This document shows positions 12,549-28,631 of a stretch of 64,000 nucleotides of DNA, one piece after another. Where the stretch lies: positions 19,087 to 83,086 of the forward strand of contig JAEYVZ010000009.1 in the NCBI GenBank assembly GCA_023431405.1, written 5' to 3'. The stretch's first letter is position 1, and every line of letters starts with the position of its first letter. Position numbers and translations under genes: made by a program. This DNA is from Actinomycetes bacterium (GTDB taxonomy: Bacteria > Actinomycetota > Actinomycetes > Actinomycetales > Microbacteriaceae). Under the pieces are notes generated by a model. The model saw only the letters and a list, made by a program, of their open reading frames with translations, searched no databases and was not told where the DNA came from.

Positions 12549-12584
12549 GCGTGGGCGCTTCCCTCGTTTCGGATATGTCGTCAA

Positions 12585-12625: not shown

Positions 12626-12683
12626 GCGCAGCTGTTCCCGCGCTCCCGAAGGTTCTGGATGCGCCGGCGGGGATACTGGAGGG

Positions 12684-13307
12684 ATGAAGCTCATCGTGTT
12701 CGGCGCCACCGGCGGTGTCGGCCGCCAGGTTCTCACCCAGGCCCTCGCCGCCGGGCACGAGGTCACCGCCTTCGTCCGCTCTCCCGAAAAGCTCGGCAGG
12801 CTCCCCGGGGTGCGCGTCGTCGCGGGCGACGCCTTCGATGCCGAGGCGGTGTCGGCGGCCATCGCGGCCCATGACGCCGTCGTCTCCGCCCTCGGCTCCT
12901 CGCGAGGGCTCTCGCGCTCCGACGAGCTGCAGCGCATGACGCGCAGCATCGTCGACGGAATGGCTGCCCACGGCGTCCGCCGCATCGCGTACTGCGCCTC
13001 GGCGGGCATCGACGGGGAGCTTCCGGGAGTAAGCGGCACGGCGATCCAGTGGATGCTGCGGCACCCCCTGGCCGACCATCGCGCCGCGGTCGGACTCATC
13101 GACGCCGCCGGCCTCGACGCGACCATCGCGCGTCCCACCGGGCTCAACGACGATCCCCTCGTGACCGACTATCTCGAGGCTTTCGGCGGGCCTCCGCAGA
13201 CGGGCCGCTCGATCCCGCGCGCGTCGGTCGCGCACTTCCTCGTGAAGGCGCTGGGCGACCCCGAGACCTACGTCGGAGCGTCGGTGGGGCTTTCCACCGC
13301 CAAGTGA
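12684..13307 (+). CDS. NAD(P)H-binding NmrA/atypical-SDR-like oxidoreductase
   Basis: The Rossmann N-terminus reads MKLIVFGATGGVGRQV. Confidence 0.85.
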   Translation: MKLIVFGATGGVGRQVLTQALAAGHEVTAFVRSPEKLGRLPGVRVVAGDAFDAEAVSAAIAAHDAVVSALGSSRGLSRSDELQRMTRSIVDGMAAHGVRRIAYCASAGIDGELPGVSGTAIQWMLRHPLADHRAAVGLIDAAGLDATIARPTGLNDDPLVTDYLEAFGGPPQTGRSIPRASVAHFLVKALGDPETYVGASVGLSTAK

Positions 13308-13358
13308 CGGGCTGACGCCTGCCACCGTGCGGGCCGACAGACGCGTACGATCGCGCAC

Positions 13359-14426
13359 ATGGATGCCCAGCGCGGTCGGGTGATCACCGGGCTCATCCGC
13401 GTGGCCCCCCGGCGCGGCGACCACCGCGTCGCGATCCGCGCCGCGCTCGCGCTCGCGGTACCGCTTCTCGCGCTGTGGGCCACCGGACGCGTCGACCTCA
13501 GCATGTACGCCTGCTTCGGCGCCTTTGCGAGCCTGTACGGGCGGCTCGACGCGTATGCCGATCGGGTGCGGATGCAGGTCGCCGCGGGCGTCACGCTGAT
13601 CGTCGCGATGCTGATCGGCACATCGATGGCGCTCCTGGCGGCGCCGGCGGTGGTGTGCGTCGTCGTGGTGGCCACGCTCGCGGCGATCGGCTCGATCGTC
13701 GCGTACCGGTGGCACTGGCATCCGCCCGGGTCGCTGTTCGTCGTCTTCGCCGCCGGGGCGACGGCGAGCATCCCCGCGACGGCGGCATCCTTCGGTGACG
13801 TCCTCGTGGTGGGAGGCGCATCGGCTGCCTTCAGCGTGGCCCTCGCCGCGGCCATCGCCCTCGTGAGGAAGGGGCCGTCGGCGCTCCGGCGGCGGCCGCA
13901 TCGCACGCCGCATCGCACGCCGCAGGGCGCTCCTGCCGCCTCGATGGGGCTCGCCGTGGGGATCGGAGCTCTGCTCGCGGGCCTTGCGGGCCTCCTCCTC
14001 ATCGGTGACCACTGGTACTGGGCGATGGTCGCGGCGGTGGCGGCACTGGGTGGGGCCCAGCTGTCGGCCAGGGTCGTGCGGGGCCTCCAGAGGCTCATCG
14101 GCACGCTCGTGGGCGTCGTGATCGCCGCCGGCATCCTCGCCCTCGACCTGCCGCCGCTGGCGACCTTGGCGATGGCCGTGCTCCTGCGAGCGGGAGCCGA
14201 GCTCTACATCAACCGCAATTACGGGCTTGCGATGATCTTCGTCACGCCGTTGGCGCTCGTCATGGTCGAACTGGCCGATCCGGTCGATCCCGGCGTGCTG
14301 CTGCGCGACCGTGCGCTCGATACCGCGATCGGTGTCGCCGTGGGGACGGCGGTCGCCGTGGTCTCGGCGTGGTGGCGCGGGCGCGCCGAGCGGGTGGACC
14401 GACCCGATGTCGCCGCGCGTCCGTAG
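13359..14426 (+). CDS. FUSC-family (aromatic acid exporter-like) membrane protein
   Basis: It is a multi-TM protein ending in NRNYGLAMIFVTPLAL and LRDRALDTAIGVAVG. Confidence 0.7.
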   Translation: MDAQRGRVITGLIRVAPRRGDHRVAIRAALALAVPLLALWATGRVDLSMYACFGAFASLYGRLDAYADRVRMQVAAGVTLIVAMLIGTSMALLAAPAVVCVVVVATLAAIGSIVAYRWHWHPPGSLFVVFAAGATASIPATAASFGDVLVVGGASAAFSVALAAAIALVRKGPSALRRRPHRTPHRTPQGAPAASMGLAVGIGALLAGLAGLLLIGDHWYWAMVAAVAALGGAQLSARVVRGLQRLIGTLVGVVIAAGILALDLPPLATLAMAVLLRAGAELYINRNYGLAMIFVTPLALVMVELADPVDPGVLLRDRALDTAIGVAVGTAVAVVSAWWRGRAERVDRPDVAARP

Positions 14427-14435
14427 GCTGGGGGA

Positions 14436-15419
14436 ATGCAGCAGCGTCCTCTGGCATCCACCGGTCGATCCGTCTCGGCCATCGGCCTCGGCACCTGGCA
14501 GCTCGGCGCCGATTGGGGCGACGTCTCCGAAGACGACGCGCGGGCGGTGCTGGCGGCGTCCGCCGACGCGGGCGTGACGCTCTTCGACACGGCTGACGTC
14601 TACGGCGACGGGCGCAGCGAGACGATCATCGGGCGCTTCCTCGCAGAGCGCCCCGGGCACGAGATCACCGTGGCGACCAAGATGGGGCGCCGCATGGCGC
14701 AGCAACCGGCGAACTACACACCCGAGAACTTCCGCGCCTGGACCGACCGTTCGCGGCGCAACCTCGGTGTCGACACGCTCGATCTCGTTCAGCTGCACTG
14801 CCCGCCGTCGGAGGTCATCGACGCCGAAGAGACCTACGACGCGCTCGACGAGCTCGTCGCGTCGGGGGCGATCGCGGCCTACGGCGTGTCGGTCGAGACG
14901 GTCGCGCAGGCGCTCTCGGCCATCGCCCGGCCCCATGTCACGAACGTGCAGATCATCTTCAACCCGTTCCGGTTGAAGCCGCTCGACGAGGTGCTTCCTG
15001 CTGCGGAGCGGGCAGGAGTCGCGGTCTTCGCGCGCGTTCCGCTGGCATCGGGGCTGCTCAGCGGCAAATACTCGTCGGCGACGCGCTTCGCCGAGAACGA
15101 CCATCGCACCTACAACCGCCATGGCGAGGCGTTCGACAAGGGCGAGACCTTCTCGGGCGTCGATTTCGAGACCGGCCTGAAGGCCGTCGCCGACCTCGAG
15201 CGCGCGCTGCCCGAGGGACTCACCCTCCCGGCAGCGACCCTCGCGTGGATCGCCTCGCGCCCGGGCGTCACGAGTGTCATCCCTGGGGCGCGCAGCGTCG
15301 CGCAGGCGCGTGCCAACGCGGCGGCGGGGGAGTGGCAGGGTGATCTCTCCGAGTTCGACGCGGCGATCACCGAGGTCTACGACAGGCTCCTGAGGGCTGA
15401 GATCCACCCGCAGTGGTGA
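14436..15419 (+). CDS. Aldo/keto reductase
   Basis: It carries GLGTWQLGADWG, FDTADVYGDGRSE, LDLVQLH, and IPGARS..Q...N. Confidence 0.9.
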   Translation: MQQRPLASTGRSVSAIGLGTWQLGADWGDVSEDDARAVLAASADAGVTLFDTADVYGDGRSETIIGRFLAERPGHEITVATKMGRRMAQQPANYTPENFRAWTDRSRRNLGVDTLDLVQLHCPPSEVIDAEETYDALDELVASGAIAAYGVSVETVAQALSAIARPHVTNVQIIFNPFRLKPLDEVLPAAERAGVAVFARVPLASGLLSGKYSSATRFAENDHRTYNRHGEAFDKGETFSGVDFETGLKAVADLERALPEGLTLPAATLAWIASRPGVTSVIPGARSVAQARANAAAGEWQGDLSEFDAAITEVYDRLLRAEIHPQW

Positions 15420-15659: not shown

Positions 15660-15956
15660 GTGATCGTCGAATTCACCGCGTCCGTCTTCACCTGGGAGGC
15701 TCGCTCCGAGGCCTGGTACTTCGTCGCTCTCCCTCCCGAGATATCGGCCGATATCCGCGAGATTCCGCGGATTCCGCGCGGTTTCGGCGCGGTCAAGGTG
15801 GTCGTGCGCATCGGCGGATCGACGTGGAGCACATCGATCTTCCCTGACTCGTCGCGGGGTGTCTACGTGCTGCCGCTGAAGCGAGCGATGCGTGAGCGCG
15901 AGGGGATCACCGAGGGTGCGGATATCGCGGTGACCCTCGAGGTCCGCGACTCCTGA
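15660..15956 (+). CDS. DUF1905 domain protein
   Basis: It carries WYFVALP.E.S..I......RGFG.V.V...IG...W.TSIFP. Confidence 0.75.
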   Translation: MIVEFTASVFTWEARSEAWYFVALPPEISADIREIPRIPRGFGAVKVVVRIGGSTWSTSIFPDSSRGVYVLPLKRAMREREGITEGADIAVTLEVRDS

Positions 15957-16036
15957 GCGCGGCTGCGGTCACCTGCGTCCCACTCGTCACACTGGTCACA
16001 GGGCGCACTTTTTTCACATCTCGCTCAAAATTCTCA

Positions 16037-16065
16037 TTGACAACACCATGAGAGGTCTCTAATGA
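16037..16065 (+). promoter_or_regulatory. Sigma-70-like promoter of pilA inside the only AT-rich patch of the region
   Basis: TTGACA lies at 16037-16042, followed by a 17-nt spacer and TAATGA at 16060-16065. A T-run lies upstream and a leader of about 150 nt follows. Confidence 0.45.
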
Positions 16066-16224
16066 TGTGTGACGAAGAGGGAGACACGTCCTCGCGGCGG
16101 GCCTCTCGAATCAACCGGCACAGTCTCGGCCCACCCCCCGGAATCCGAGATACCCCCCCTTGTGCACAACCCCCGGAGTGCACGCGTGCCGGAGTCCTGT
16201 TCACCCCCTAGGAGAGGCACGCAC

Positions 16225-16638
16225 ATGCGCACCATCCGCAACTATGTCCAGGCTGAGAAGGCCCGCCGCGAGGAGAACGGTGACGAGGGCTTCTCGCTCA
16301 TCGAACTGATCGTCGTCGTGGTCATCCTCGGCATCCTCGCTGCCATCGCGATCCCGGTGTTCATGAACATCCAGCAGACCGCGAAGGACAACTCGCTCGA
16401 CCAGGCCGCCTCCAACGGCGCAGTCGTCGTGGCCACCGCGATTTCGCAGGACACCACGACGATCGCCGGCATCGACACGGAGCTCAACAAGTCGGAGGAC
16501 GAGGGCTACACCCTCGCCCTCACGGCACCGGCCACGGGCACCGTGACGCTGCAGAACTACTGCGTCACGGCGACGGCTGTGGCGGGCAAGTCCCTCGACG
16601 GCGGTACCGCCGGCCCCGCCGGGCCCGGCTGCCCGTAA
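16225..16638 (+). CDS. pilA: Major type IV pilin (prepilin with N-methylation site)
   Basis: It has a 22-aa leader ending G|FSLIELIVVVVILGILAAIAIP. Two C-terminal Cys (NYC ... GPGCP) could form a disulfide loop. An AGGAGAGG RBS lies upstream. Confidence 0.85.
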   Translation: MRTIRNYVQAEKARREENGDEGFSLIELIVVVVILGILAAIAIPVFMNIQQTAKDNSLDQAASNGAVVVATAISQDTTTIAGIDTELNKSEDEGYTLALTAPATGTVTLQNYCVTATAVAGKSLDGGTAGPAGPGCP

Positions 16639-16646
16639 GCGAGCTC

Positions 16647-16686
16647 ACTGTGGGGCCGGCCCGACCCGACGGGACGGCCCCACAGT
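16647..16686 (+). terminator. Strong hairpin directly after pilA (terminator or attenuator)
   Basis: The 12-bp stem pairs actgtggggccg with cggccccacagt. No U-tract follows. Confidence 0.5.
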
Positions 16687-16738
16687 CGTCTCCCACAGCA
16701 CCACCCTTTTCTCGGAACACCACCTGGGGAGGTGACGA

Positions 16739-17182
16739 GTGTTTCAGCGTTCTGACGAAGGCTTCAGCCTCGTCGAGGTGGTCATGGCGATGTTCCTGCT
16801 CTCGCTGCTCGCCCTCGCCGTCCTCCCTCTCTTCATCAGCGCCACGCGCGTGAGCGTCGACAACCGCGACGCGGTCGAGGCGACCGCCCTCGCACAGGCC
16901 CATGTCGCCGCACTGCGATCGGAGTTCCCGGCCCAGCCCGTCACCGCGACGACCTGCGCGGGACTCACGTCGGCCGCTGCCCGCATCGCCGACACGAACC
17001 CCTCGACCCTCCCGAACATCACCCTTCCGGCCGGTCTGTCCCGCCAGGTGACAGTGGAGACCTGCCCGACCGGCGCCGCTGCCGGAAAGCCCGCCGCCGT
17101 GCTCGTGAGCGTCCGCATCTCGGATGCCACGGGCAAGATCCTCGTCACCCTCCGCACTCGCATCCCCGTGAGCGCCGCATGA
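16739..17182 (+). CDS. Minor pilin (prepilin-type N-terminal cleavage/methylation domain)
   Basis: The N-terminus reads MFQRSDEG|FSLVEVVMAMFLLSLLALAVLPL. Confidence 0.75.
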   Translation: MFQRSDEGFSLVEVVMAMFLLSLLALAVLPLFISATRVSVDNRDAVEATALAQAHVAALRSEFPAQPVTATTCAGLTSAAARIADTNPSTLPNITLPAGLSRQVTVETCPTGAAAGKPAAVLVSVRISDATGKILVTLRTRIPVSAA

Positions 17183-17772
17183 TCGCCCGGCTTCGCACCC
17201 TCCTCCTGCGCGACGACGCGGGCGTGACCCTCGTCGAGCTGATCGTCGGCATGGTCGTGGCGGGCATGTTCGCGGCGATGCTCACCCTCATGTTCATCAA
17301 CGGCTGGACCTCGCAGCAGAAGTCGATCGCCCGCGACGCGGCCACCGGTCAGGCCAACATCGTGCGCACCTCTCTTTCCGACTCGCTCCGCAACGCCACG
17401 GCGGTGCGAGTGAGCGGGGGAGGGACGCGTGTGGATGCGGTCGTCGGCCGCGTCGGCACCTCCCTCACGGGCTGGACCTGGGAGTGCCGGGCCTGGGTGC
17501 TCCACGACAGGTCGATCCGGTACAGCGCGGGCCCCACGGCACGCGGCACGGATGTCGCGTCGTGGGCGACGCTCGCCGGCAAGACGGCGCAGGCGCCGCT
17601 CGATGTCGTCACGGGCACGATCGGCGGCGTGCCGTTCGCGCTCGTGGGCGCCAAGAGCGTGCAGATCGGCATCGACATCCGCAGCGGCAAAGACCCGCAG
17701 ACGGTGTCGATCTCCGACGGCATGACGGCCCAGGCCGTCTCGACCGAGGCGGCGATCACATGCTGGACCTGA
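17179..17772 (+). CDS. Minor pilin (PilW-like, prepilin-type N-terminus)
   Basis: It carries RDDAG|VTLVELIVGMVVAGMFAAML. Its start overlaps the previous stop (ATGA). Confidence 0.75.
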   Translation: MIARLRTLLLRDDAGVTLVELIVGMVVAGMFAAMLTLMFINGWTSQQKSIARDAATGQANIVRTSLSDSLRNATAVRVSGGGTRVDAVVGRVGTSLTGWTWECRAWVLHDRSIRYSAGPTARGTDVASWATLAGKTAQAPLDVVTGTIGGVPFALVGAKSVQIGIDIRSGKDPQTVSISDGMTAQAVSTEAAITCWT

Positions 17773-19358
17773 CCCGCCACCGCCCGCGCACCGAACGGCT
17801 CCGCGGCGACGATTCCGGCTCGACGCTCATCGCGGTGCTGATCGTGATGCTCGTGCTCGGCATCGCCGGCCTCACCCTTGCCGCCGTCGTCGTCAACACG
17901 CAGTCGCTCGTCACCGACAGTCGCGCCCGTGCGGAGTCGCGGGCGACGTCCGACGCCGGGCTCGCGGCCACGGCAGCGAGCCTCAAGCGCGGCGAGATCA
18001 CCTGCCCCCTGTCGCCGGCGAAGCAGGTCGTGAACGATGTGCCCGTCTCGGCAGACCCGGGCTCGCTGAAGTACAGCTACGCCGTCTCGTGCACCGACGC
18101 CGTCGCGAAGGTGCGGGTGACCGCGAATGTGCGCGGTGCCACGAGCGCCGTGCAGGCCGACTACGCCTTCGCCACGTCGACATCCCAGGGCGGCGACATG
18201 GTGTTCTTCGGCACCAACACCATCACGTTCAACTCCAACGTCGAGGTGACCGATCCGGGGCGCAAGGTGAACATCGTGATCCCCCAGGCGACGTCGTTCA
18301 GCTGCAATGCGAAGATCCCCGGCACACTCACCGTCAAGGGCAACCTGAGCACGTCGTCGGGCTGCAACGTCGCCGGCGATGTGGCAGCGGGCGGCACGCT
18401 CAACATGTGCTGCGGCAGTGACACGTTCGGCGGCGACCTCACCCTGCGGGGTACGGGATCGAGCATCATCCGCGGCACGATCAACGGCAGCATCCGCGCC
18501 AACGGCAAGCTCGAGTTCGGATGGGAGAACAAGACCATCGGCGGCTCGGTGACGACCACGGGCGACGTGCAGCTGGGGAGCGTTCGCATCCAGGGCTCCC
18601 TCACTTTCCCCTCGGGTCGCACCTACACTCCGAACTCCGGAACCGTGGTGGGCGGAGTCATCCGCCCCGCGACCGTCGCCTCGGTGCCGCCGCTGACCCT
18701 TCCCACCTGGTTCGAGTACAAGTACAGCAACGCCGACTGGCCCGGGTACAACGTCGTGACCCTCGCCGGCTCCGGCAGCGGCGCGGGAACCTGCAGCTAC
18801 TTCAACGCCTACCCCGGGACGGGCTGGACCACCTGGCTCGGGAGCCTTGCCACCAACACGGTCGTCGACGCGCGTGCGTGCAGCAACCTGTCTTCGGAGA
18901 ACGGATCGATCCCCGTCGTGCAGCTGCGCTCGAACGTGGTGCTGCTCGCGAACGCGTTCGACCTCGGCTCGGTGACCTTCCGTGCGGCGGCCGCCGCCAG
19001 CGGCAAGCCGTCGCTGTACATCGTCACCGAAGATCGCACGCCTTCCGACGTCAACCCGACGTGCGGCACGGGGCAGGGCCAGATCAAGATCAACGGCACC
19101 GTCATCGACTCCTCCGTGCGGGCCATCGGCTACACGCCGTGCACGGTCGACGTCGGAAGCAAGGGCATCGACCAGTGGACGGGCACGCTGTACGGCGGAT
19201 CGTGGACCCCGGGCGGCAAGTTCACCTTCACCGCCGACCCGATCGGCCTGCCCGGCATGGGCGCAGAGCACGGCGTGAGCGTCGAGACGAAGTCGGTCGG
19301 TGCACTTCTCCGGCAGCGTGACGTGACTTATGGGACGTTGAGCACATGGGTACCCTGA
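17760..19358 (+). CDS. Large PilX-like pilus protein with a beta-helix-type repeat region
   Basis: It has a PilX_N-like N-terminus (GSTLIAVLIVMLVLGIAGLTLAAV). The central region shows G-x-hydrophobic periodic repeats (GTLTVKGNL ... GDVAAGGTL ... GGDLTLRGTG ... GTINGSIRANG ... GGSVTTTGDVQLGSVRIQGSLTF). Confidence 0.65.
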   Translation: MLDLTRHRPRTERLRGDDSGSTLIAVLIVMLVLGIAGLTLAAVVVNTQSLVTDSRARAESRATSDAGLAATAASLKRGEITCPLSPAKQVVNDVPVSADPGSLKYSYAVSCTDAVAKVRVTANVRGATSAVQADYAFATSTSQGGDMVFFGTNTITFNSNVEVTDPGRKVNIVIPQATSFSCNAKIPGTLTVKGNLSTSSGCNVAGDVAAGGTLNMCCGSDTFGGDLTLRGTGSSIIRGTINGSIRANGKLEFGWENKTIGGSVTTTGDVQLGSVRIQGSLTFPSGRTYTPNSGTVVGGVIRPATVASVPPLTLPTWFEYKYSNADWPGYNVVTLAGSGSGAGTCSYFNAYPGTGWTTWLGSLATNTVVDARACSNLSSENGSIPVVQLRSNVVLLANAFDLGSVTFRAAAAASGKPSLYIVTEDRTPSDVNPTCGTGQGQIKINGTVIDSSVRAIGYTPCTVDVGSKGIDQWTGTLYGGSWTPGGKFTFTADPIGLPGMGAEHGVSVETKSVGALLRQRDVTYGTLSTWVP

Positions 19359-20188
19359 CACCGGCCGCCATCGTCCTCCTCGTCGCCTTCGCGGGTCTGT
19401 TCGGACTCGTGATCGGCTCGTTCCTCAACGTCGTCGTCTACCGTGTTCCGGCGGGCGTCCCCCTCACCCGGGAGAGCCGGTGCCCCTCGTGTGAGGCGCC
19501 GGTGCGGCCCTGGCAGAACGTGCCGGTGGTGTCGTGGCTGCTGCTGGGCGCCAAGTGCGCGGGATGCCGCGCCCCCATCTCCGCCCGCTATCCGCTCGTC
19601 GAGCTCGCCACCGGGGCCGCCTTCGCGGTCGTGGCGTGGGTCGCTCTCGACCCGGCGCGCTCCTCCGCCTCCGACCAGGGGTGGGCGAGCGCCGTCGTCG
19701 TGGCGGCCTTCCTATACCTGGCAGCGATCAGCATCGCGCTCACACTCATCGACCTCGACGTCCGGCGGCTCCCGAACGCGATCGTCGTCCCCGCTTACGC
19801 CGTGCTGGGTGTGCTGTTCACCGTCGCCTGCCTTCTCGGAGCGCCGTGGGAGGCGCTGGTGCGCGCGGCCCTGGCCGCCGCGGCCCTCTTCGCGTTCTAC
19901 CTGCTCCTGCGCACCGTGCGCCCCGGGGGCATGGGCGGCGGAGACGTGAAGCTCGCCGGTGTCGTGGGCGCGGCCCTCGGCTGGATCGGGTGGGGCGCCC
20001 TGGTGGTAGGAGCGTTCGCGGCCTTCGTGCTGGGCGGCATCGTCGCCGTCGCGCTGATGCTCTCGGGGAAGGCCGGTCGCCGCAGCGCGATCCCTTTCGG
20101 GCCGTGGATCATCGCGGGGGCATGGGTCGGGATCTTCGCCGGTGAGCACATCGCCGGCTGGTACGTAGGGATGCTGGTCGCCGGCTGA
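19346..20188 (+). CDS. pilD: Prepilin peptidase / N-methyltransferase (A24 family)
   Basis: It carries GSFLNVVVYR, the Cys box CPSC ... CAGC, and GGGDVKL. Confidence 0.9.
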   Translation: MGTLTPAAIVLLVAFAGLFGLVIGSFLNVVVYRVPAGVPLTRESRCPSCEAPVRPWQNVPVVSWLLLGAKCAGCRAPISARYPLVELATGAAFAVVAWVALDPARSSASDQGWASAVVVAAFLYLAAISIALTLIDLDVRRLPNAIVVPAYAVLGVLFTVACLLGAPWEALVRAALAAAALFAFYLLLRTVRPGGMGGGDVKLAGVVGAALGWIGWGALVVGAFAAFVLGGIVAVALMLSGKAGRRSAIPFGPWIIAGAWVGIFAGEHIAGWYVGMLVAG

Positions 20189-20214
20189 GCCGGTGACCGA
20201 GAGAGGAGACGGCG

Positions 20215-21282
20215 GTGGCGAAGACGATCGTCGGGCTGGAGATCACCGAAGAGGGGGTGCGTGCTGCGGAAGTGACCGCGGGACGCTCGCCGCGCGTGGT
20301 CGCGTTCGGATCCGTGCCGCTTCCCCCGGGGGCGGCGAAGGACTCGGAGGTGTTCGACACGGATGCGGTCGTGATCGCGCTGCGGCAGCTGTGGTCGCGC
20401 GCGGGCATCAAGGGCCGGAACGTCGTGCTCGGCATCGGCAGCCGCCGCATCCTGGTGCGCGATTACACGACGCAGGCACTGCGTCCCGATCTGCTGGCCC
20501 AGGCGCTTCCGTTCCAGGTGCAGGACCTGCTGCCGGTGCCGGCGGAGCAGGCGGTGCTCGACTTCTACCCGACGGCCCAGGAGGGCGACCAGGTCTCCGG
20601 CCTGCTGGTGGCGGCCGTTGCCGAGACGGTGGACGAGCTCGTGACGGCGGTCGCGAAGGCGAAGCTGACGGTGGAGGTGGTAGACCTCGCCCCGTTCGCG
20701 CTCGTGCGTGCGGTGGGGCCTGCGCTGGCCGCCGGTGAGACGGTCGCTGCGCTGCATCTGGGCGATCACACGACGTATGTCGTGGTCGTGCGCGACGGCG
20801 TGCCGCAGTTCGTCCGGATCATCCCGATGGAGATCGCGACGGAGGCGGTACGGCTGCGAGCCGCGACCGCGGAGCCCGCCGAGTCGGGCGAGACCGCAGA
20901 GGCACCGCTTCCTGTCGCGGAGGAAGTGCTGGAGACCGTTCCGCCGGGGGAGCAGCCGATGCGGCGCCGGTCGGCGGCGCGCGGGGTGGCCCGCACCGTG
21001 ACGATGAGCGACGCCGATGTCGTCAACGTGGTGGCTCGCCTGGGGAGCACGCTGCGGTTCTACGCCGATCGCACCCCCGACACACCGATCACGCGGGTGC
21101 TGGTCAGCGGCGCGGGCGCGGCAGTCAGCGGGGTGGTCGACGCTCTGGCGGCGAGCCTGCCGATGCCGGTGCAGGTGGTCGGCGTGTCGAGCCTCGTCGA
21201 GGCCAAGACGACCGTTCCGCCCGGTGATGTCGACCTCAACCTCGTCACGACCGTCGGTCTCGCCCTGGGAGGTGCACGCTGA
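20215..21282 (+). CDS. pilM: Type IV pilus assembly protein PilM (actin-like ATPase fold)
   Basis: The N-terminus IVGLEITEEGVRAAEV is followed by LDFYP and VVDLAPFAL. The gene sits directly before pilN. Confidence 0.85.
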   Translation: MAKTIVGLEITEEGVRAAEVTAGRSPRVVAFGSVPLPPGAAKDSEVFDTDAVVIALRQLWSRAGIKGRNVVLGIGSRRILVRDYTTQALRPDLLAQALPFQVQDLLPVPAEQAVLDFYPTAQEGDQVSGLLVAAVAETVDELVTAVAKAKLTVEVVDLAPFALVRAVGPALAAGETVAALHLGDHTTYVVVVRDGVPQFVRIIPMEIATEAVRLRAATAEPAESGETAEAPLPVAEEVLETVPPGEQPMRRRSAARGVARTVTMSDADVVNVVARLGSTLRFYADRTPDTPITRVLVSGAGAAVSGVVDALAASLPMPVQVVGVSSLVEAKTTVPPGDVDLNLVTTVGLALGGAR

Positions 21283-21929
21283 TGGCCCGCTCATCGACGC
21301 CCGTCTTCGTACTGGGCGCCGCGCCCCGCGTCAATCTCATGCCACGCGTGGCCATCGAACGGCGCGAGCGCGCCGCCTTGCTGCGACGGTGGGGGTGGGC
21401 GCTGGCCCTGGCCCTGCTGGTGGTGGGACTCCTCAGCGGGGGAGCCTTCGCCCTGCAGGCGATGTCGGCGCAGCGGCTGGCGGCGGAGGAGGCGCGCACC
21501 GCCGACCTGATCAACCGAACGGCCGAGCTTGCGCCGGTGCAGCAGAAGCTGGATCTGCAGAGCGAGCTTGCGCTCTTCCGTCAGGAGGCGATGGGAACCG
21601 ATCTTTCCTGGTCGGACTTCCTCGCCTCCATACAGGCCGTCGTCCCGGATGGGCTCGGGTTCACCGGATTCAGCATCGCTCCGGCGGGCATCCCCGATGA
21701 CACCGTCGCGCCCGCGGAGGCTCCAGGGCTCCAGGGGCAGCTGGTTCTGGCAGGGACGTCGGGCAGCGAGTTCGCGTCGCTCATCCGCGCGGTCCGGGAC
21801 ATCCCGGGGGTGATGGATGCCGATGGTTGGGTGCAGGAATACGTCGACGGGCATTACGAGTACACCGTGCGTCTCGTGGTGGATCAGTCGGTGTACACCG
21901 GTGATTACGCGGCGGAGGTCGCACAGTGA
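21282..21929 (+). CDS. pilN: PilN-like pilus assembly protein
   Basis: It has a VNLMP motif (compare INLLP), a single TM segment and a coiled region. It is translationally coupled on both sides. Confidence 0.7.
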   Translation: MARSSTPVFVLGAAPRVNLMPRVAIERRERAALLRRWGWALALALLVVGLLSGGAFALQAMSAQRLAAEEARTADLINRTAELAPVQQKLDLQSELALFRQEAMGTDLSWSDFLASIQAVVPDGLGFTGFSIAPAGIPDDTVAPAEAPGLQGQLVLAGTSGSEFASLIRAVRDIPGVMDADGWVQEYVDGHYEYTVRLVVDQSVYTGDYAAEVAQ

Positions 21930-22708
21930 ACGCGAACAAGCAGCTCATCAATCTCGCCGGAATCCTCGTCGTGGTGGTCCTTATCGTGGCGGGGATCGCC
22001 CTCGTGGCGCTCCCGATGTACACGCAGTCGCAGACGATCGACGGCCAGGCCCGAACGGCGGCGCAGACGAACATGCTCTACGAACAGCAGATCGCCCAAC
22101 TCGCCGCCGCGGAGTCGCGCATCGACCAGATCGACGGCGAGCTCGCGGAGCTGCGGCGCGAGATCGCCTCGTCGCCCCAACTCGACGACCTGCACGTTCT
22201 CATCGACGCGGCCGCGAGATCGGCGGACGTCCGCGTGACCTCGGTCAACGCCAGCGACGGTGAGGCCTGGAGCGCGCGCGGTCGCGGATCCGACGACGGT
22301 GCGGCGACCACGGGCGCGGAGGAGCCCGCCCAGGCGGATGCTGCTGCCCCCTCGGAAGAGGGCGCGGCGTCCGACGCGGCGGAGGCCCCTGCGCCCTCCG
22401 CCGACGGGAACTCCACCCCCCAGCGTCAGGTGCTCACCACGATCGTGATCGAGGTCGGCGCCGGGTATGACGCGGGGTCCGGAGAGAGCGAGGGAGACGG
22501 GGAGACCGACGAGGGAGCAGGGGGCGAGGGAGACAGCGGTGACACGCTCCTCGCCGACGACGTCCTCGCCGAGCTCGCCGCCAAGGGCGTCGCGTTCGTG
22601 GACGCCCTCCGCAAGGGTCCGCGCCTCGTGACCCCGATCGACCTGAAGTACGAAGACGGCGAACTGACCGTCACGGTGCTCACCTATTACCGCACGCCCG
22701 CCGTCTGA
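21926..22708 (+). CDS. pilO: PilO-like pilus assembly protein with a long acidic low-complexity insert
   Basis: It has an N-terminal TM segment and a coiled coil (QQIAQLAAAESRIDQIDGELAELRREI). The call also rests on its position between pilN and pilT. Confidence 0.6.
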   Translation: MNANKQLINLAGILVVVVLIVAGIALVALPMYTQSQTIDGQARTAAQTNMLYEQQIAQLAAAESRIDQIDGELAELRREIASSPQLDDLHVLIDAAARSADVRVTSVNASDGEAWSARGRGSDDGAATTGAEEPAQADAAAPSEEGAASDAAEAPAPSADGNSTPQRQVLTTIVIEVGAGYDAGSGESEGDGETDEGAGGEGDSGDTLLADDVLAELAAKGVAFVDALRKGPRLVTPIDLKYEDGELTVTVLTYYRTPAV

Positions 22709-22722
22709 GCCGGAGAACAGCC

Positions 22723-23865
22723 ATGCACGATGTCTCACCCCTTCAGGGACTCCTCGCCGTCGCGGCGCGCTCGCGCGCCTCCGACGTGCACCTCACCGCG
22801 AACCACCCGCCGCAGATGCGCGTGGACGGCGACCTCGAGCTCATCCCGGGCTACGAGGAGCCGACCTCGACGAACTGGCTCGAATCGGCCATCGGCGGCA
22901 TCCTGTCGAACGATCAGGTCGCCGAGTTCCGCCAGTCCGGAGAGGTCGACCTCTCGATCACCGTGCCGGAGGTCGCCCGGTTCCGCGTGAACGTGTTCCG
23001 TCAGCTGGGGCAGGTCGCCGTCGCACTGCGTTTCATCGCCGACCGCATCAAGAGCTTCGATGAGCTGGGGGTGCCGCGGGTCGCTGCCGAGCTCGTCATG
23101 AAGCCGCGAGGGCTCGTGCTGGTGACAGGGCCCACAGGTTCGGGCAAGTCGACCACGCTCGCCTCGATGATCGACGTCGTGAACCGCTCCAAGCCCGCCC
23201 ACATCGTCACGGTCGAAGACCCGGTGGAGTTCCAGCACACGAGCAAGCGCTCGCTGATCCACCAGCGGGAGATCGGCAGCGACACGGCATCGTTCTCCGA
23301 GGCTCTGCGCCGCGTGCTCCGCCAAGACCCCGACATCATCCTCATCGGCGAGCTCCGCGACCCCGAGTCGATCTCCACGGCGCTCACAGCCGCCGAGACC
23401 GGCCACCTCGTGCTGTCGACGCTGCACACGCAGAGCGCCGCGAAGTCGATCAACCGCATCGTCGACGCGTTCCCGTCCGATCAGCAGAATCAGGTGCGCA
23501 CGCAGCTGGGCGACACGCTGCGGGGCATCATCACGCAGACCCTCCTTCCGCGGGCGCAGTCCGAGGGGCGCGTCATCGCGACCGAGGTGCTCGTCAACAC
23601 CCCGGCGATCGCCAACCTCATCCGAGAGGGTGAGATCAGCCAGATCTACTCCATGCTGCAGGCGGGCGGGTCGATCGGAATGCACACCCTCGACCAGGAT
23701 CTTCAGCGCCTCGTCGCCGACGGCTCGATCTCGCTGTCGCTGGCCAAGGAGATCGCCGAAGATCCCCGAGCGTTCGACGACACCCGCGTGCGCCCCGTCG
23801 ACTACGACGCCGAGGCGTGGACGATGCACTCGTCCGAGCGGGCCTCGCTCGGCTGGAGCAGCTGA
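22723..23865 (+). CDS. pilT: Twitching-motility (retraction) ATPase PilT
   Basis: It carries ASDVHL, Walker A GPTGSGKST, AHIVTVEDPVEF, and the GHLVLSTLHT His box. At about 380 aa it lacks the N-terminal T2SSE_N domain. Confidence 0.9.
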   Translation: MHDVSPLQGLLAVAARSRASDVHLTANHPPQMRVDGDLELIPGYEEPTSTNWLESAIGGILSNDQVAEFRQSGEVDLSITVPEVARFRVNVFRQLGQVAVALRFIADRIKSFDELGVPRVAAELVMKPRGLVLVTGPTGSGKSTTLASMIDVVNRSKPAHIVTVEDPVEFQHTSKRSLIHQREIGSDTASFSEALRRVLRQDPDIILIGELRDPESISTALTAAETGHLVLSTLHTQSAAKSINRIVDAFPSDQQNQVRTQLGDTLRGIITQTLLPRAQSEGRVIATEVLVNTPAIANLIREGEISQIYSMLQAGGSIGMHTLDQDLQRLVADGSISLSLAKEIAEDPRAFDDTRVRPVDYDAEAWTMHSSERASLGWSS

Positions 23866-25103
23866 TGTCCCTCGTCGAGGAGTACACCTACCGGGCCGTG
23901 GATGCCACGGGCGGCGGAGTCGTGAAGGGCACGATCGAGGCCTCCAGCGAGCACGCTGTCGCCTCGAAGCTCCGCGCTCAGGGGCTGACGCCGCTCGAGG
24001 TCGCGCTCACGTCCAAGACGGGCCTGCACCGGGAGATCACGATCCCGGGTTTCGCCAAGCGGGTGAAGGTGGGGACCCTCGCCGTGTTCGCCAAGCAGAT
24101 GGCGAGCCTCATCAACGCGGGTCTGCCGCTCATGCGGACCCTCGCGATCCTCACCGAACAGGCCGAGGACAAGAAGCTGCGCGACGCGCTCGTGAAGGTG
24201 CATGCGTCCGTCGAATCGGGGAGCGCCTTCTCGGCCGCCCTCGCTCAGCATCCCGATGTGTTCCCGCCGCTCATGGTCAGCATGGTGCGGGTCGGTGAAG
24301 CCGGCGGTTTCCTGGGCCAATCACTCACGACCGTGGCCGAGACGTACAAGAACGAGGCGGAGCTGCAGGACAAGATCAAGTCGGCGACGACCTACCCGTT
24401 GATCGTACTGAGCATCGCGATCATCGGTGTCATCGCGATGGTCACCTTCGTCGTCCCGGTCTTTGAGGGGATGTTCTCGGGGCTCGGTTCCGAGCTGCCC
24501 GTGCCGACGCAGATCCTCGTGGTCATCTCCAAGAACATGTTCTGGGTGCTGCCGCAGCTGATCGCCGGCGGCATCGCCTTCTGGCTGTGGTGGGTGCGCA
24601 GTCGCGACTCCGTGGCGGTGCGCCGCGTGGTCGATCCGATCAAGCTCAAGGTTCCGGTGTTCGGACCGCTTGCGACGAAGATCGCCGTCGCACGATTCAC
24701 ACGGGGCCTCGCGATGATGCTCAAGGCCGGTGTTCCGCTGGTGCAGGCGCTGTCGATCGTGGGGGCGGCATCCAACAACTACAAGGTCGAAGAGGCCGTG
24801 CGCGCGGTGCAGGAGTCGGTGAAGCAGGGCAAGTCGTTCTCGGCTCCCCTCGCGAAGGCGCAGATCTTCCCGCCGATGGTCGCGCAGATGGCCGCCGTCG
24901 GCGAGGAGTCGGGCACGCTCCCCGACATGCTGGCGAGCATCGCCGACTTCTACGAAGGCGAAGTGAAGACGGCCGCCGAGCAGCTCACCGCCTCGATCGA
25001 GCCGATCCTCATCGTCGGTATCGGCATCATCATCGGCGGCATGGTCGTCTCCCTGTATCTGCCGATCTTCTCGATCTATGGCGAGATCGGAGACGCGGGC
25101 TGA
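23865..25103 (+). CDS. pilC: Type IV pilus platform protein PilC (T2SS F family)
   Basis: It has duplicated T2SSF domains with the motifs F..QMA.L...G.PL, GE..G.L and ...L...A.FYE.E. Confidence 0.9.
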   Translation: MSLVEEYTYRAVDATGGGVVKGTIEASSEHAVASKLRAQGLTPLEVALTSKTGLHREITIPGFAKRVKVGTLAVFAKQMASLINAGLPLMRTLAILTEQAEDKKLRDALVKVHASVESGSAFSAALAQHPDVFPPLMVSMVRVGEAGGFLGQSLTTVAETYKNEAELQDKIKSATTYPLIVLSIAIIGVIAMVTFVVPVFEGMFSGLGSELPVPTQILVVISKNMFWVLPQLIAGGIAFWLWWVRSRDSVAVRRVVDPIKLKVPVFGPLATKIAVARFTRGLAMMLKAGVPLVQALSIVGAASNNYKVEEAVRAVQESVKQGKSFSAPLAKAQIFPPMVAQMAAVGEESGTLPDMLASIADFYEGEVKTAAEQLTASIEPILIVGIGIIIGGMVVSLYLPIFSIYGEIGDAG

Positions 25104-25215
25104 GCCCGGACGACAGCCCACCAGAACGGCGGGGCGTGCGCACCAGGGGAGGGAGCGCGCGCCCCGCTTCCTCTTGCGCGCGTCGGCCTCCCGTGCCCCT
25201 TCCCGAATCAAGCAC

Positions 25216-25228
25216 ATTGTGTAACAAT
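25216..25228. promoter_or_regulatory. GntR-type operator candidate ATTGT-gta-ACAAT
   Basis: It is an inverted repeat with a GT-N-AC core, 6 nt upstream of the EamA start codon. Confidence 0.4.
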
Positions 25229-25233
25229 CAACC

Positions 25234-26163
25234 GTGCGCGCAAGAGTGATGATCCTCATCGCCAGCGCGCTGTTCGGGAGCCTCGCCGCGGCGGTGCAGC
25301 TGTCGGGTGTCGAGGCCTCACCGGTCTCGGTGGGACTGGCCCGCATCCTCGTCGGGGGCGGGCTCCTCGGGCTCGCCGCCGTCTGGGCGGCCACGACAGC
25401 GCGTGCGTCATCGCCACACAACGCCGGCCCCCCTGCGGCACGTCGGCGCATGCCGACGTGGGTGGTCGTGGCCGTGGGTGCAGCGGGGGTGCTCGGCTAC
25501 CAGCCTCTGTACTTCGTCGGCACCGGCGTGAACGGCGTCGCCGTCGGCACGGTCGTCTCGCTCGGTTCGGCACCTGTCCTCGCCGGCGTCGCGGAGGCCG
25601 TCGTCCGCCGACGCCCGCCGGGCACCCGCTGGGCGATCGCCACAGCACTGTGCATCGTCGGGGTCGCGATGACCTCGGGCGTCATGGAGTCGGCAGGAGG
25701 CTCCGCGGGAGGCGGGGGAGCCGGCATCCTCTGGTCGGTCGCCGCAGGCGCCTGCTACGCCACGTATGCCCTCGCGGCGAAAGAGCTCATGGAACGCGGA
25801 TGGACCTCGAGCCGGGCGATGGGCGCCCTTTTCGGGACGGCCGCGGCCGCGAGCGTGCCCCTCCTGCTGGTCGTCGGCGCCGGCGAGATCCTCAGCCTCC
25901 GCGGACTCCTGCTCCTCGTGTGGCTCGGGGTCTTCGGCACCGCCATCGGCTACCTGCTCTTCGGGGCCGGGCTCGCCGCGCTTCCGGCGGCGACCGTCAC
26001 CACGCTCACCCTCGCCGAACCGCTCTGCGCGACACTCCTCGGCATCGGTCTGCTCCATGAGACACTCGGACCCGCCGCCGGTGTCGGGCTCGCGGTCCTT
26101 GCCGCAGGCCTCACCGTCATCACGATCCCGGGGAAGGAGCGCCATGTCACCGCGACGGCGTGA
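25234..26163 (+). CDS. EamA/DMT-family transporter
   Basis: It is a 10-TM-like hydrophobic protein with duplicated EamA-type halves. Confidence 0.8.
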   Translation: MRARVMILIASALFGSLAAAVQLSGVEASPVSVGLARILVGGGLLGLAAVWAATTARASSPHNAGPPAARRRMPTWVVVAVGAAGVLGYQPLYFVGTGVNGVAVGTVVSLGSAPVLAGVAEAVVRRRPPGTRWAIATALCIVGVAMTSGVMESAGGSAGGGGAGILWSVAAGACYATYALAAKELMERGWTSSRAMGALFGTAAAASVPLLLVVGAGEILSLRGLLLLVWLGVFGTAIGYLLFGAGLAALPAATVTTLTLAEPLCATLLGIGLLHETLGPAAGVGLAVLAAGLTVITIPGKERHVTATA

Positions 26164-26809
26164 CGGATCGCCCCGGCCCACCGCGTCTGCGGCGCTCACC
26201 GCCGACCTCCGCGACCGCATCCTCCGTGGCGCGCTCACCCCCGGGGAGCCTCTCCGTGAAGAGGCGCTGGCCGCGTCGTCCGGTCATTCGCGCCACACGG
26301 TGCGCACGGCACTTGCCGCCCTCGTCGCCGAGAGGCTCGCCGTGCAGGTCCCGTACGGCGGTATTCGCGTGCGCAGCCTCACCTCGGAAGACCTGACCGC
26401 GCTGCAGCAGCTTCGCTGCGCACTCGAATCGGAGGCGGTCCGGCTCCTGCGGGCGCGCCACGGCGCGCGGTGGCCGGCGGAGGTCACCGAGCCGATCGCT
26501 CACGCTGTCGACGAGCTCGAGTCCGCGGCGGCCGACGGCCCGGATGACTGGCCGTCGCTCGCGCGATCGCATGCGGTCGTTCACCGGCGGCTGGTCGAGG
26601 CGTGCCGGAGCCCGCGCATCGTGGAGGCCTACGCACTCTTGGATTCGGAGATGCTGCTGCACCTCGTCAACATGCGCCCCAGCTATTCGGCGGACGACCT
26701 CGTGGCCGAACATCGGGCGTACCTCGACGCGGTGCGCGAGACGGGCGAGGATGCCGTGCGCCGCCACATCGACGGAGGCACGCTCAACGCGGGTCTCGGG
26801 GAGCGCTGA
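26144..26809 (+). CDS. GntR-family regulator (FadR subfamily, FCD C-terminal domain)
   Basis: It carries L..G..L.E..LA...G.SR.TVR.AL..L and an FCD-like C-terminus. It overlaps the EamA gene by 20 nt. Confidence 0.85.
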   Translation: MSPRRRDGSPRPTASAALTADLRDRILRGALTPGEPLREEALAASSGHSRHTVRTALAALVAERLAVQVPYGGIRVRSLTSEDLTALQQLRCALESEAVRLLRARHGARWPAEVTEPIAHAVDELESAAADGPDDWPSLARSHAVVHRRLVEACRSPRIVEAYALLDSEMLLHLVNMRPSYSADDLVAEHRAYLDAVRETGEDAVRRHIDGGTLNAGLGER

Positions 26810-26824
26810 GCGAGGGGGACGCGA

Positions 26825-28492
26825 TCACACCGAGACGCGCATGACCTCTTCGATGGTCGTGATCCCCTCGGCGACCTTGCTGAAGCCGTCCTCCCGCAGC
26901 GAGATCATGCCCTCTTCCAGTGCCGTCGTGCGCAGCTCGGTTCCGGTCGCGCGCGACACGACGAGCTGCTCCAGACGCTCGGTGACCTCCATGACCTCAT
27001 GCAGCGCCACGCGGCCGCGGTACCCCGTGCCCGAGCACTCCTGGCATCCGACCGCCCGATACAGCACGGGTGGGTCGAGGGGGTTGTGAGGGAACCTCAC
27101 CGATGTCAGCACATCGCGGCTCTCCGTGTACGCCTCGCGACACTTCATGCACAGGCGTCGCGCGAGGCGCTGCGCGACGACCGCCGAGAGCGCCGTGCCG
27201 ACGAGATATGGCTCGCAGCCGATCTCGACCAGACGCGTGAGGGCGCTCGGCGCGTCGTTGGTGTGCAGAGTCGAGAGCACGAGGTGTCCCGTGAGAGCGG
27301 CCTCGATCGAGATGGTCGCCGTCTCCTCGTCGCGGATCTCGCCCACCAGCACGACGTCGGGATCGGAGCGGAGGATCGAGCGCAGCGCCGCCTGGAATGT
27401 CATCCCGGCGCGCTGGTTCACCTGCACCTGGTTGATGCCTGCCATGCGGTATTCGACCGGGTCTTCGACGGTGATGACGTTGATCCGCGGGTTGGCGACG
27501 GTGTTGAGGGCCGTGTAGAGCGTCGTCGACTTGCCCGAACCGGTCGGCCCGGTCACGAGCACCATCCCGTGGGGACGCGTGATCGACGAGCGGAACTTCT
27601 GCTCGTTGCGGATCGAGAAGCGAAGATCCGACATCGTCAGCGACTGCGCGGAGCTGTCGAGGATGCGCATGACGATCTTCTCGCCCCACACCGTGGGGAG
27701 GGTCGCCAGGCGCAGGTCGATCTGGCGCCCGTCATGGTGCACGGAGAGCCGGCCGTCCTGGGGCTTGCGGCGCTCGGCGATGTCGACGGCGGCCATGATC
27801 TTCAGCCGGGAGATGACGCCGTCCTGGATGGCCCGGTCGGCGCGCTGCATCTCGTGGAGCACGCCGTCGATGCGATACCGCACGGTGAGATTGCGCTCAC
27901 CGGGCTCGATGTGGATGTCGCTCGCGCGGTCGTTGATCGCCTGAGAGATGAGGAGATTCACGAAGCGGACGACGGGGGCGTCGTCGACCTGCTCGTCGAG
28001 CGTCTCGGTGGCCGCTCGTCCGTCGGCGGCCGCAATCTCGCCGATCTGCTCCGAGAGGTCGATGAGCTCCTCGTCAGAGCGGAGGAAGCGGGAGAACGCC
28101 GTGTCGAGCGCGTCGGCGGCCACCACGACCGGGCGGACATTCAACTCGGTCGCTGTGGCGATGTCGTCGATCGCGATGAGGTCGGTCGGATCGACCATCC
28201 CGAGCACGAGGCTGCGGCGGCCGCGCTCGAGCGGGATCACCTGGTAGCGGCGGCAGAGAGCCGGTGGCACGGAGGCGATGGCGTCGGGGGTGAGCTCTGC
28301 CTCGGGGAGGTCGACGAAGGGGAATCCGGTCTGGGTGGCGACGGCGCGTGCCAGCTCCGTATGCGAGACGAGGCCGCGCTCGATGAGACGGCGCCTGAGC
28401 TCAGCGCCCTCGCCGTACTCCGCGACGGCATCCCAGAGGATGTCTTGGTCGATGGCCCCATGCTGCACGAGGCTTTCCGCGAGTCCCTTCAC
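26825..28492 (-). CDS. pilB: Type IV pilus assembly (extension) ATPase PilB / GspE family
   Basis: It has a T2SSE_N-type N-terminus, Walker A GPTGSGKSTT, GHLVLSTLHTND, and a tetra-Cys cluster (CMKC ... CQECSGTGY). The ORF extends to 28519; I prefer the GTG at 28492 because of its RBS. Confidence 0.9.
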   Translation of the reverse strand: MKGLAESLVQHGAIDQDILWDAVAEYGEGAELRRRLIERGLVSHTELARAVATQTGFPFVDLPEAELTPDAIASVPPALCRRYQVIPLERGRRSLVLGMVDPTDLIAIDDIATATELNVRPVVVAADALDTAFSRFLRSDEELIDLSEQIGEIAAADGRAATETLDEQVDDAPVVRFVNLLISQAINDRASDIHIEPGERNLTVRYRIDGVLHEMQRADRAIQDGVISRLKIMAAVDIAERRKPQDGRLSVHHDGRQIDLRLATLPTVWGEKIVMRILDSSAQSLTMSDLRFSIRNEQKFRSSITRPHGMVLVTGPTGSGKSTTLYTALNTVANPRINVITVEDPVEYRMAGINQVQVNQRAGMTFQAALRSILRSDPDVVLVGEIRDEETATISIEAALTGHLVLSTLHTNDAPSALTRLVEIGCEPYLVGTALSAVVAQRLARRLCMKCREAYTESRDVLTSVRFPHNPLDPPVLYRAVGCQECSGTGYRGRVALHEVMEVTERLEQLVVSRATGTELRTTALEEGMISLREDGFSKVAEGITTIEEVMRVSV

Positions 28493-28631
28493 GGCCCTTC
28501 CTCTCCCCGCACGTATCATATGCGCTTCTGTTACTGATGGGGAAGAAGCAGTCTCATGATGCTGGTGGGATCTCCTGAGCGCTGAGACAGGCGGTCCGCT
28601 CGAGAGGGCGGGCTGTGGGGGACGGCGGAGC

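Follow-up and report, generated by a model that had tools for sequence, protein, structure and literature searches.

We identified a gene set for a retractable, secretin-less type IVa pilus (T4aP) in a 64,000-nucleotide stretch of DNA from an actinobacterium of the family Microbacteriaceae (NCBI GenBank assembly GCA_023431405.1, contig JAEYVZ010000009.1, positions 19,087 to 83,086 of the forward strand). The whole stretch is referred to here as the window, and coordinates are positions within it. The block occupies positions 16037–28519, and the host DNA is a Microbacterium chromosome. The gene set is real, complete and evolutionarily maintained; the identities of its genes, the completeness of the set, the purifying selection acting on it and its distribution are established below. 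From the genes we predict, with a probability of roughly 85%, a working retractile T4aP machine in a monoderm Microbacterium. T4aP with PilT are already documented in monoderms and in Actinobacteria, and the locus is a fresh example and not a new kind of system. Its particulars of interest are modest: a putative ComZ-like tip pilin in a monoderm actinobacterium, a permuted gene order combined with a promoter of non-WhiG type, and recurrent loss of the machine with pilD kept.

The block contains eleven pil open reading frames (ORFs), all of them intact and with catalytic motifs preserved. The G+C content is 66–72% across the whole window, and the block genes have a coding-type G+C content at third codon positions (0.83–0.93), a signature that the overlapping ORFs on the opposite strand do not share. 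The preliminary description of this stretch had proposed a complete type IV pilus gene set in a high-GC actinobacterial backbone, and this proposal is borne out. The component identities are supported because family models, signature motifs, two AlphaFold models, homology chains and comparative genomics agree. The profile searches that had been suggested as a check matched N_methyl, Peptidase_A24, PilM_2, T2SSE and T2SSF; the PilN and PilO sequences themselves have no Pfam match.

The gene for the retraction ATPase, pilT (22723..23865, + strand), scores 459 bits against the TIGR01420 pilT_fam model (cutoff 319). The protein contains Walker A, Walker B and His box motifs together with the sequence AIANLIRE, which we take to be the PilT-specific AIRNLIRE motif. 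It matches PilT chains in the PDB with E-values of ~1e-103 and PilB chains with ~1e-32, a clear separation of PilT from PilB. The next gene, pilC (23865..25103, + strand), begins at a TGATG junction with pilT and encodes a 412-aa platform protein with two T2SSF domains (1.8e-65). PilC models match it over its full length, the best being the Thermus and Myxococcus PilC models. The extension ATPase gene pilB (26825..28519, − strand) is convergent with pilC and lies 1.7 kb beyond it on the other strand, as first described. PilB matches T2SSE (1.7e-137) as well as MshEN and carries a tetracysteine motif (CMKC...CQEC). Within the MshEN region the NCBIfam model of the cyclic di-GMP motif scores 18.3 bits against a cutoff of 38, and inspection by eye shows substitutions of the leading R-L-G in each copy of the motif. 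The Pfam and NCBIfam models and the signature motifs thus agree with the identities first assigned to PilT, PilC, PilB and the peptidase PilD.

Genes for PilM, PilN and PilO precede pilT. The actin-like cytoplasmic assembly protein PilM (20215..21282, + strand) matches PilM_2 (3.5e-25) and the PilM chains 3JC8, 2YCH and 5EOX in the PDB. The bitopic membrane protein PilN (21282..21929, + strand) was recognized by a VNLMP motif at residues 17–21, by the single transmembrane segment that follows, and by the position of its gene between pilM and pilO. Eight actinobacterial orthologues share the motif in the form [VI][ND]L[LMI]P, and it presumably corresponds to the PilM-binding INLLP motif of PilN. 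PilN also shows a weak match to the C-terminal part of GspL. The third gene, pilO (21926..22708, + strand), encodes a transmembrane helix, a coiled coil, and two alpha-beta-beta motifs with acidic disordered inserts. Family profiles of PilN and PilO gave no meaningful matches among PDB sequences, and structure prediction was needed. An AlphaFold model of PilO made with 28 homologues has a predicted local distance difference test (pLDDT) score of 74.7, and its top structural match in the PDB is P. aeruginosa PilO (2RJZ, probability 1.0), followed by PulM and XcpY. In addition, the PilO family profile finds 827 representatives, of which distant members reach the Pfam PilO cutoff of 22 (P0339 with 28 bits, P0329 with 22), and Pfam PilO weakly matches the orthologue of M. 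aoyamense. The three identities first proposed therefore stand, PilM by Pfam, PilN by motif, topology and gene order, and PilO by fold and transitive Pfam homology; direct Pfam matches of PilN and PilO are the part that did not materialize. The PilM-PilN-PilO subcomplex is specific to T4aP (PMC6916266).

At the other end of the block are the pilins. Three ORFs, first read as a major prepilin with the motif G↓FSLIE and two minor prepilins, pass the Pfam N_methyl model, in agreement with their motifs. The major prepilin gene pilA (16225..16638, + strand, 137 aa) scores 30.4 bits against N_methyl, for which the cutoff is 21.2, and also matches TIGR02532. Its start codon is the ATG at 16225, behind the ribosome-binding site AGGAGAGG; position 16037, which had been given as the start of the genes, is instead a −35 box. 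The leader of PilA is 22 aa long, with the cleavage site MRTIRNYVQAEKARREENGDEG↓FSLIE. Long prepilin leaders are typical of monoderm T4a pilins (PMC6916266). Residues 23–135 align with P. aeruginosa pilin (1OQW), further T4a pilins are matched, and the C-terminus contains a cysteine pair (Cys113-Cys136). Minor prepilin 1 (16739..17182, + strand, 147 aa) belongs to the GspI/PilV class, with an N_methyl score of 27.2 bits, a G↓FSLVE site, and weak matches to ComGE, HpsB, XpsI and PilV. Minor prepilin 2 (17179..17772, + strand, 197 aa) scores 24.0 bits against the same cutoff and has a G↓VTLVE site; its start overlaps the upstream gene by ATGA. In all three proteins the class III cleavage motif is followed by a transmembrane-like segment.

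The fourth pilin-like protein (17760..19358, + strand, 532 aa) is a large minor pilin of the PilX/GspK class. Its N-terminus carries the sequence G↓STLIA and is devoid of Glu5, and no Pfam family matches it. The AlphaFold2 model (pLDDT 85.9) predicts a long helix at residues 22–77 that leads into a small beta-sheet and then a large beta-solenoid. Among PDB structures, the competence pilin ComZ of Thermus thermophilus matches this model best (6QVI, E-value 1e-4, probability 1.0), followed by ice-binding solenoids. The authors of the ComZ study likewise reported ice-binding proteins as relatives of the ComZ solenoid (PMC6561018). The modelled order of strands, with four strands at 89–141, then the solenoid and a final strand at 509–521, would be compatible with an insertion of the ComZ type. 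A pilin-like N-terminal helix without Glu5 joined to a large predicted solenoid is the architecture of a beta-solenoid tip pilin, and the label 'PilX-like' first given to the protein fits. According to a 2026 preprint, all cyanobacterial PilX proteins combine a pilin fold with a beta-solenoid, and the solenoid is proposed to replace PilY1 as a tip plug or adhesin (10.64898/2026.02.12.705559). Like Thermus ComZ and cyanobacterial PilX, the modelled protein is ~500–550 aa long, lacks canonical pilin motifs, has a solenoid related to ice-binding proteins and is encoded beside minor pilins (PMC6561018); unlike them, it belongs to a monoderm actinobacterial host and has no detectable sequence similarity to them. 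The likeness to ComZ seen in the model is an architectural resemblance and not demonstrated orthology. We propose from the model that the protein is the tip subunit. If so, the range of the beta-solenoid PilX architecture, so far Thermus and cyanobacteria, would widen to include a monoderm actinobacterium.

The protein belongs to a family of 48 clusters, and every organism-named cluster comes from Microbacterium. It is also the fastest-diverging protein of the block, with 27% identity to the copy in a relative (locus L005) whose PilT is 88% identical. This fast divergence fits an exposed tip that binds a ligand or is exposed to phage.

The prepilin peptidase/N-methyltransferase gene pilD (19346..20188, + strand, 280 aa) follows. 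It matches A24_N_bact (5e-31) and Peptidase_A24 (3e-14) and contains the CPSC/CAGC motifs, Asp136 and GGGD200, with both catalytic aspartate contexts present.

Several observations weigh against a complete and working machine. PilN and PilO fall below the Pfam thresholds with their own sequences, and the Foldseek E-value of the PilO match is only 0.023. PilB scores best against TIGR02538, at 623.6 bits just under the equivalog cutoff of 675.65. The global TM-score between the 532-aa protein and ComZ is only 0.21, and a profile of the 532-aa family searched against PDB sequences found no sequence-level similarity to ComZ. A fourth minor pilin of the FimU/GspH type and a PilY1 were not found in the block. 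Finally, about half of the sampled Microbacterium species (6 of 11) have discarded the machine, which indicates that it is dispensable.

The components of an outer-membrane pilus are missing, as is appropriate to the secretin-less system first described: a scan of ORFs in the block and in the wider 64-kb window found no secretin, PilP, PilW or TsaP. The known monoderm T4aP consists of PilD, PilB, PilC, PilM/N/O and PilT, with retraction powered by PilT (PMC6916266), and each of these components is encoded here.

The pili usually associated with Actinobacteria are those of the Tad/Flp type (PMC6916266). The T4aP described here belongs to the same superfamily as the Tad/Flp (type IVc) pili of Micrococcus luteus, Bifidobacterium breve and Mycobacterium and shares with them an A24 prepilin peptidase. 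A Tad/Flp pilus was rejected: the block lacks an Flp pilin, a TadB/TadC pair and TadZ, and the TadA-type model reaches 51.6 bits against a cutoff of 373, with TadA-type scores far below those of PilB and PilT. PilC is a single protein with two domains, and the pilins, at 137–532 aa, are not Flp-like.

A second family of relatives consists of the type II secretion systems, and the locus could in principle encode a pseudopilus that exports proteins across the wall with no long pilus. PilB, PilC and the pilins do score against the GspE, GspF and GspG-K models, and minor prepilin 1 weakly matches the pseudopilins XpsI and HpsB. However, the best-scoring models are those of T4aP, PilT and PilM/N/O are T4aP hallmarks, and the pilin carries a C-terminal disulphide pair of the T4a type. 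GspC, GspD and a full GspL are also absent from the scanned ORFs. We consider a secretion pseudopilus highly improbable.

The preliminary description had allowed that the block might turn out to be a competence (Com) system. A ComG pseudopilus was rejected: the ComGA, ComGB and ComGC models score 269.7 (for PilB; cutoff 300), 132 (cutoff 240) and 22.6 bits (cutoff 75), lower than the models for PilB and PilC, and the block also encodes PilM/N/O and PilT. A competence pseudopilus of another kind, or a dedicated DNA-uptake pilus, would have the ComZ-like tip bind DNA and PilT retraction pull it through the wall. ComZ is the tip DNA-receptor competence pilin of Thermus and is the best structural match of the modelled 532-aa protein (PMC6561018), many species take up DNA by means of T4aP retraction (PMC6916266), and in cyanobacteria, which have two minor-pilin priming complexes, each with a beta-solenoid PilX, one of the two builds the pili of natural competence (10.64898/2026.02.12.705559). 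On the other hand, the resemblance to ComZ is confined to the fold, beta-solenoid PilX proteins have also been proposed as tip plugs or as adhesins for extracellular polysaccharide (10.64898/2026.02.12.705559), and comEA, comEC and dprA were not found among the scanned ORFs of the window. Such a dedicated function is doubtful. If it were correct, part of Microbacterium would be naturally transformable. To our knowledge, natural transformation has not been described for Microbacterium.

The predicted T4aP genes are arranged as a compact unit. On the + strand, six of nine junctions overlap (two by 4 nt as ATGA and GTGA, two by 1 nt as TGATG, and two by 13 nt), and three are gaps of 100, 26 and 14 nt. 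The first account, that nearly every junction overlaps, is therefore slightly overstated. From this layout pilA to pilC appear to form one translationally coupled transcript that starts at a sigma-70-like promoter. The promoter (16037..16066, + strand) reads TTGACA-N18-AATGAT, or N17-TAATGA, and is the sole promoter-like site between 15400 and 29000. The form TTGACA-N17/18-TAATGAT is kept 5' of pilA in three relatives (loci L004 to L006). A palindrome (GAGA..TCTC / CATGAGA..TCTCATG) at ~16047–16064 overlaps the promoter spacer and the −10 element, and in M. timonense (locus L006, ~3503–3518) it is a perfect 16-mer, CATGAGAATTCTCATG. It does not recur 5' of pilB. The palindrome may be an operator, and its overlap with a conserved promoter suggests a housekeeping-type promoter controlled by a repressor.

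Two other forms of control were considered for pilA and rejected. The sole match to a WhiG/FliA promoter with at most two mismatches in the 64 kb is antisense inside pilC, and there is none 5' of pilA or pilB. A riboswitch in the ~155-nt pilA leader received no Rfam match, either in a search of the full window or when 15900–16800 was scanned permissively, and the predicted fold of the leader is unremarkable compared with shuffled sequences (z = −0.62). As a side observation, words of the TCACA/TGTGA type recur at 15980–16030, 5' of the pilA promoter (GTCACA..GTCACA..TTCACA), and similar TGTGA/TTCACA-like words occur in the pilB-BrkB intergenic regions of four related loci (L005, L084, L085 and L089). 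Both were noticed by eye, with no statistics, and could represent a CRP/GlxR-like or response-regulator site.

The 100-nt gap 3' of pilA contains a GC-rich hairpin (16647..16686, + strand). The segment 16636–16700 folds with −36.8 kcal/mol (z = −4.47), and none of 200 shuffled sequences folds as well. Hairpins after pilA in loci L004 to L007 are equally strong and differ in sequence. The element is likely a terminator, an attenuator or an mRNA-stabilizing structure that would set the ratio of major to minor pilins.

The 1.7 kb between pilC and pilB (25234–26809 in the window) contain unrelated genes for an EamA transporter and a GntR/FCD regulator. This insert is shared with the closest relative (locus L004) only, and elsewhere the gap holds nothing or a different cargo, such as an MTES_1575-like gene in M. 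telephonicum or SulP and HNH/DUF222 genes in M. invictum. Because its cargo differs among species, the gap behaves as an insertion hotspot.

The distribution of the block was examined in two separate ways. The comparison of presence and absence that the preliminary description had called for was run within Microbacterium, in 11 named genomes sampled through their BrkB orthologues. The block is present in five of these (M. telephonicum, sp. TNHR37B, M. aurum, M. invictum and M. aoyamense) and absent from M. oleivorans, M. lacticum, M. dextranolyticum, M. radiodurans, sp. No. 7 and sp. AG238. A genome scan with PilT found it in at least four Microbacterium species and one Leucobacter among the matches listed. 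The closest PilT sequences among those matches are from two uncultured Microbacterium metagenome-assembled genomes (96% and 88% identity), M. timonense (78%) and Microbacterium sp. Root180 (76%); a Leucobacter metagenome-assembled genome has 80% identity, and the next tier, at 55–57%, comprises Demequina, Kineosporiaceae, Leifsonia and Naasia. Proteins identical to those of the block also occur on metagenome contigs. The first description implied that such loci are rare, which is not supported: T4aP with PilT are established in monoderms and reported in Actinobacteria, and about half of the sampled Microbacterium species carry the block.

The block is found at a fixed site, flanked in the window by DUF1905 on one side and by BrkB/YihY and glycogen phosphorylase (GlgP) on the other. 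In the four Microbacterium loci found with PilT the order is DUF1905, then pilA, the two minor prepilin genes, the gene for the 532-aa protein, pilD, pilM, pilN, pilO, pilT and pilC, followed by zero to two unrelated genes, pilB on the − strand, and BrkB. In M. aurum (locus L087, 4261–5928), pilB directly follows pilC on the same strand. The window and every other Microbacterium or Leucobacter locus in which pilB was seen have this gene in the opposite orientation, and the inversion thus arose within the group.

All six sampled genomes without the block keep a pilD orthologue at the DUF1905-BrkB site, with 44–64% identity over the aligned region. Since the peptidase gene is retained at the same site in each of them, the simplest reading is that the locus was ancestral at this site in Microbacterium and was lost repeatedly on both sides of pilD. 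Five of the six retained proteins are shortened at the N-terminus, with the A24_N_bact part gone and both catalytic aspartate contexts kept; three of these are 156–175 aa long, and the M. lacticum copy is full-length. The shortened proteins are possibly evolving towards a TadV-like peptidase, and pilD may be kept since the peptidase serves other substrates. That pilD is kept time and again when the machine is lost hints at a sharing of peptidases between filament systems. A joint proposal, that T4aP with the ComZ-like pilin are DNA-uptake organelles and that the PilD encoded here processes further prepilins as well, such as Flp/Tad pilins, is unlikely as a whole. If true, the part concerning PilD would explain why pilD is kept in every lineage that deleted the machine.

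Loss in so many genomes raises the further possibility that the block is silent or in decay and has ceased to produce a pilus. The deletion of the machine in six of 11 genomes and the insertion of unrelated genes between pilC and pilB in several species are consistent with decay. However, the eleven ORFs are intact with their catalytic motifs, the promoter and the hairpin after pilA are conserved, and the genes evolve under constraint. The ratio of non-synonymous to synonymous substitution (dN/dS) relative to the closest relative is 0.04 for pilT, 0.08 for pilC, 0.09 for pilB and 0.11 for pilM, 0.18–0.25 for the pilin genes and pilD, and 0.32–0.40 for pilN and pilO, so that all pil genes lie between 0.04 and 0.40. 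The values for the motor genes (0.04–0.09) are as low as that of glycogen phosphorylase, and the pil genes resemble the flanking GlgP and BrkB genes in dS. Low dN/dS and a dS like that of the flanking genes indicate that the pil genes are kept by selection and have been co-inherited with their neighbourhood. We regard decay as very unlikely, and a maintained T4aP machine as the better account.

Operons containing pilT were reported in Gram-positive bacteria in 2011 (PMC3244431), and a genomic survey places T4aP in Actinobacteria (PMC6668835). The locus resembles the monoderm T4aP of Firmicutes (Streptococcus sanguinis, Clostridium perfringens and C. difficile) in its long-leader prepilins, its set of PilD, PilB, PilC, PilM, PilN, PilO and PilT, its clustered genes and its absence of outer-membrane parts (PMC6916266), and differs from them in phylum and gene order. 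In contrast to S. sanguinis, accessory PilI, PilJ and PilK were not identified in the block. The bulky pilin also differs, with a predicted beta-solenoid here and, in S. sanguinis, a von Willebrand factor A module in the modular pilin PilB (10.1101/2021.01.27.428410).

Within the phylum, type IV pili have been studied in Rubrobacter and in Actinoplanes missouriensis (PMC8325347; PMC12871210). The zoospores of A. missouriensis use them to adhere to hydrophobic surfaces (Kimura 2019, cited in PMC8325347). These organisms share pil-type pilus gene clusters with the host described here. Clusters controlled by WhiG are predicted in Cellulomonadaceae, Jonesiaceae, Sanguibacteraceae and Cryptosporangiaceae (PMC12871210). 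Our literature searches found no study of type IV pili in Microbacterium or Microbacteriaceae. The pil promoters of Actinoplanes and Rubrobacter, as described in these sources, are of the WhiG/FliA type (TAAA...GCCGATAA) (PMC8325347; PMC12871210), whereas the promoter here is sigma-70-like with a palindrome. The loci of Demequina, Kineosporiaceae, Leifsonia and Naasia share pilB, pilT, pilC, pilA, pilD and pilM/N with the block at 30–59% identity. In other actinobacterial loci the order is pilB-pilT-pilC-pilA...pilD-pilM-N on one strand; here it is pilA...pilO-pilT-pilC followed by a pilB that is mostly inverted.

From these components we infer how the filament would be assembled, retracted and regulated. 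PilD would cleave the prepilins after the glycine and then methylate them. The three minor pilins (the GspI/PilV-like protein, the second minor pilin and the 532-aa protein without Glu5) would assemble into a priming complex whose final position is the tip of the filament. PilB would drive the PilC platform, held in a ring of PilM, PilN and PilO, so that PilA is polymerized through the cell wall, and replacement of PilB by PilT would lead to retraction of the filament. The beta-solenoid of the tip protein would be the likely ligand-binding element, with a surface, a polysaccharide or DNA as possible ligands. The dominant role of the pilus could be adhesion, twitching or DNA uptake. The genes from pilA to pilC would be expressed from the one sigma-70-like promoter with its possible operator, the hairpin after pilA would probably set the stoichiometry of major and minor pilins, and pilB would be transcribed separately from the opposite strand.

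The locus provides a concrete, testable model for T4aP in Microbacteriaceae and leaves the current understanding of type IV pili unchanged. The natural pairs of presence and absence at one fixed site allow the contribution of a retractile pilus to be compared, for traits such as surface colonization, plant or host association, phage sensitivity and gene uptake.

The remainder of the window is ordinary core chromosome, with genes for phosphoenolpyruvate synthase, pyruvate carboxylase, 3-deoxy-D-arabino-heptulosonate 7-phosphate synthase and a PASTA kinase, and the division and cell-wall (dcw) cluster. Two long ORFs, at 12099–15407 (− strand, 1102 aa) and 29841–32330 (− strand, 829 aa), were rejected as high-GC artefacts; their G+C content peaks at codon position 1 and not 3, and they lie opposite real genes. 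At 47256–49078, adjoining the pyruvate carboxylase gene, a gene for a 443-aa ParA/CbiA-like ATPase abuts an ORF of 163 aa, with no link to pilus or Tad genes in the window. An mraW RNA (Rfam RF01746, 54.9 bits against a cutoff of 50) at 60079–60177 heads the division and cell-wall cluster and is followed by ORFs at 60148–61146 and 61143–61748 and by a penicillin-binding transpeptidase gene at 61810–63624.

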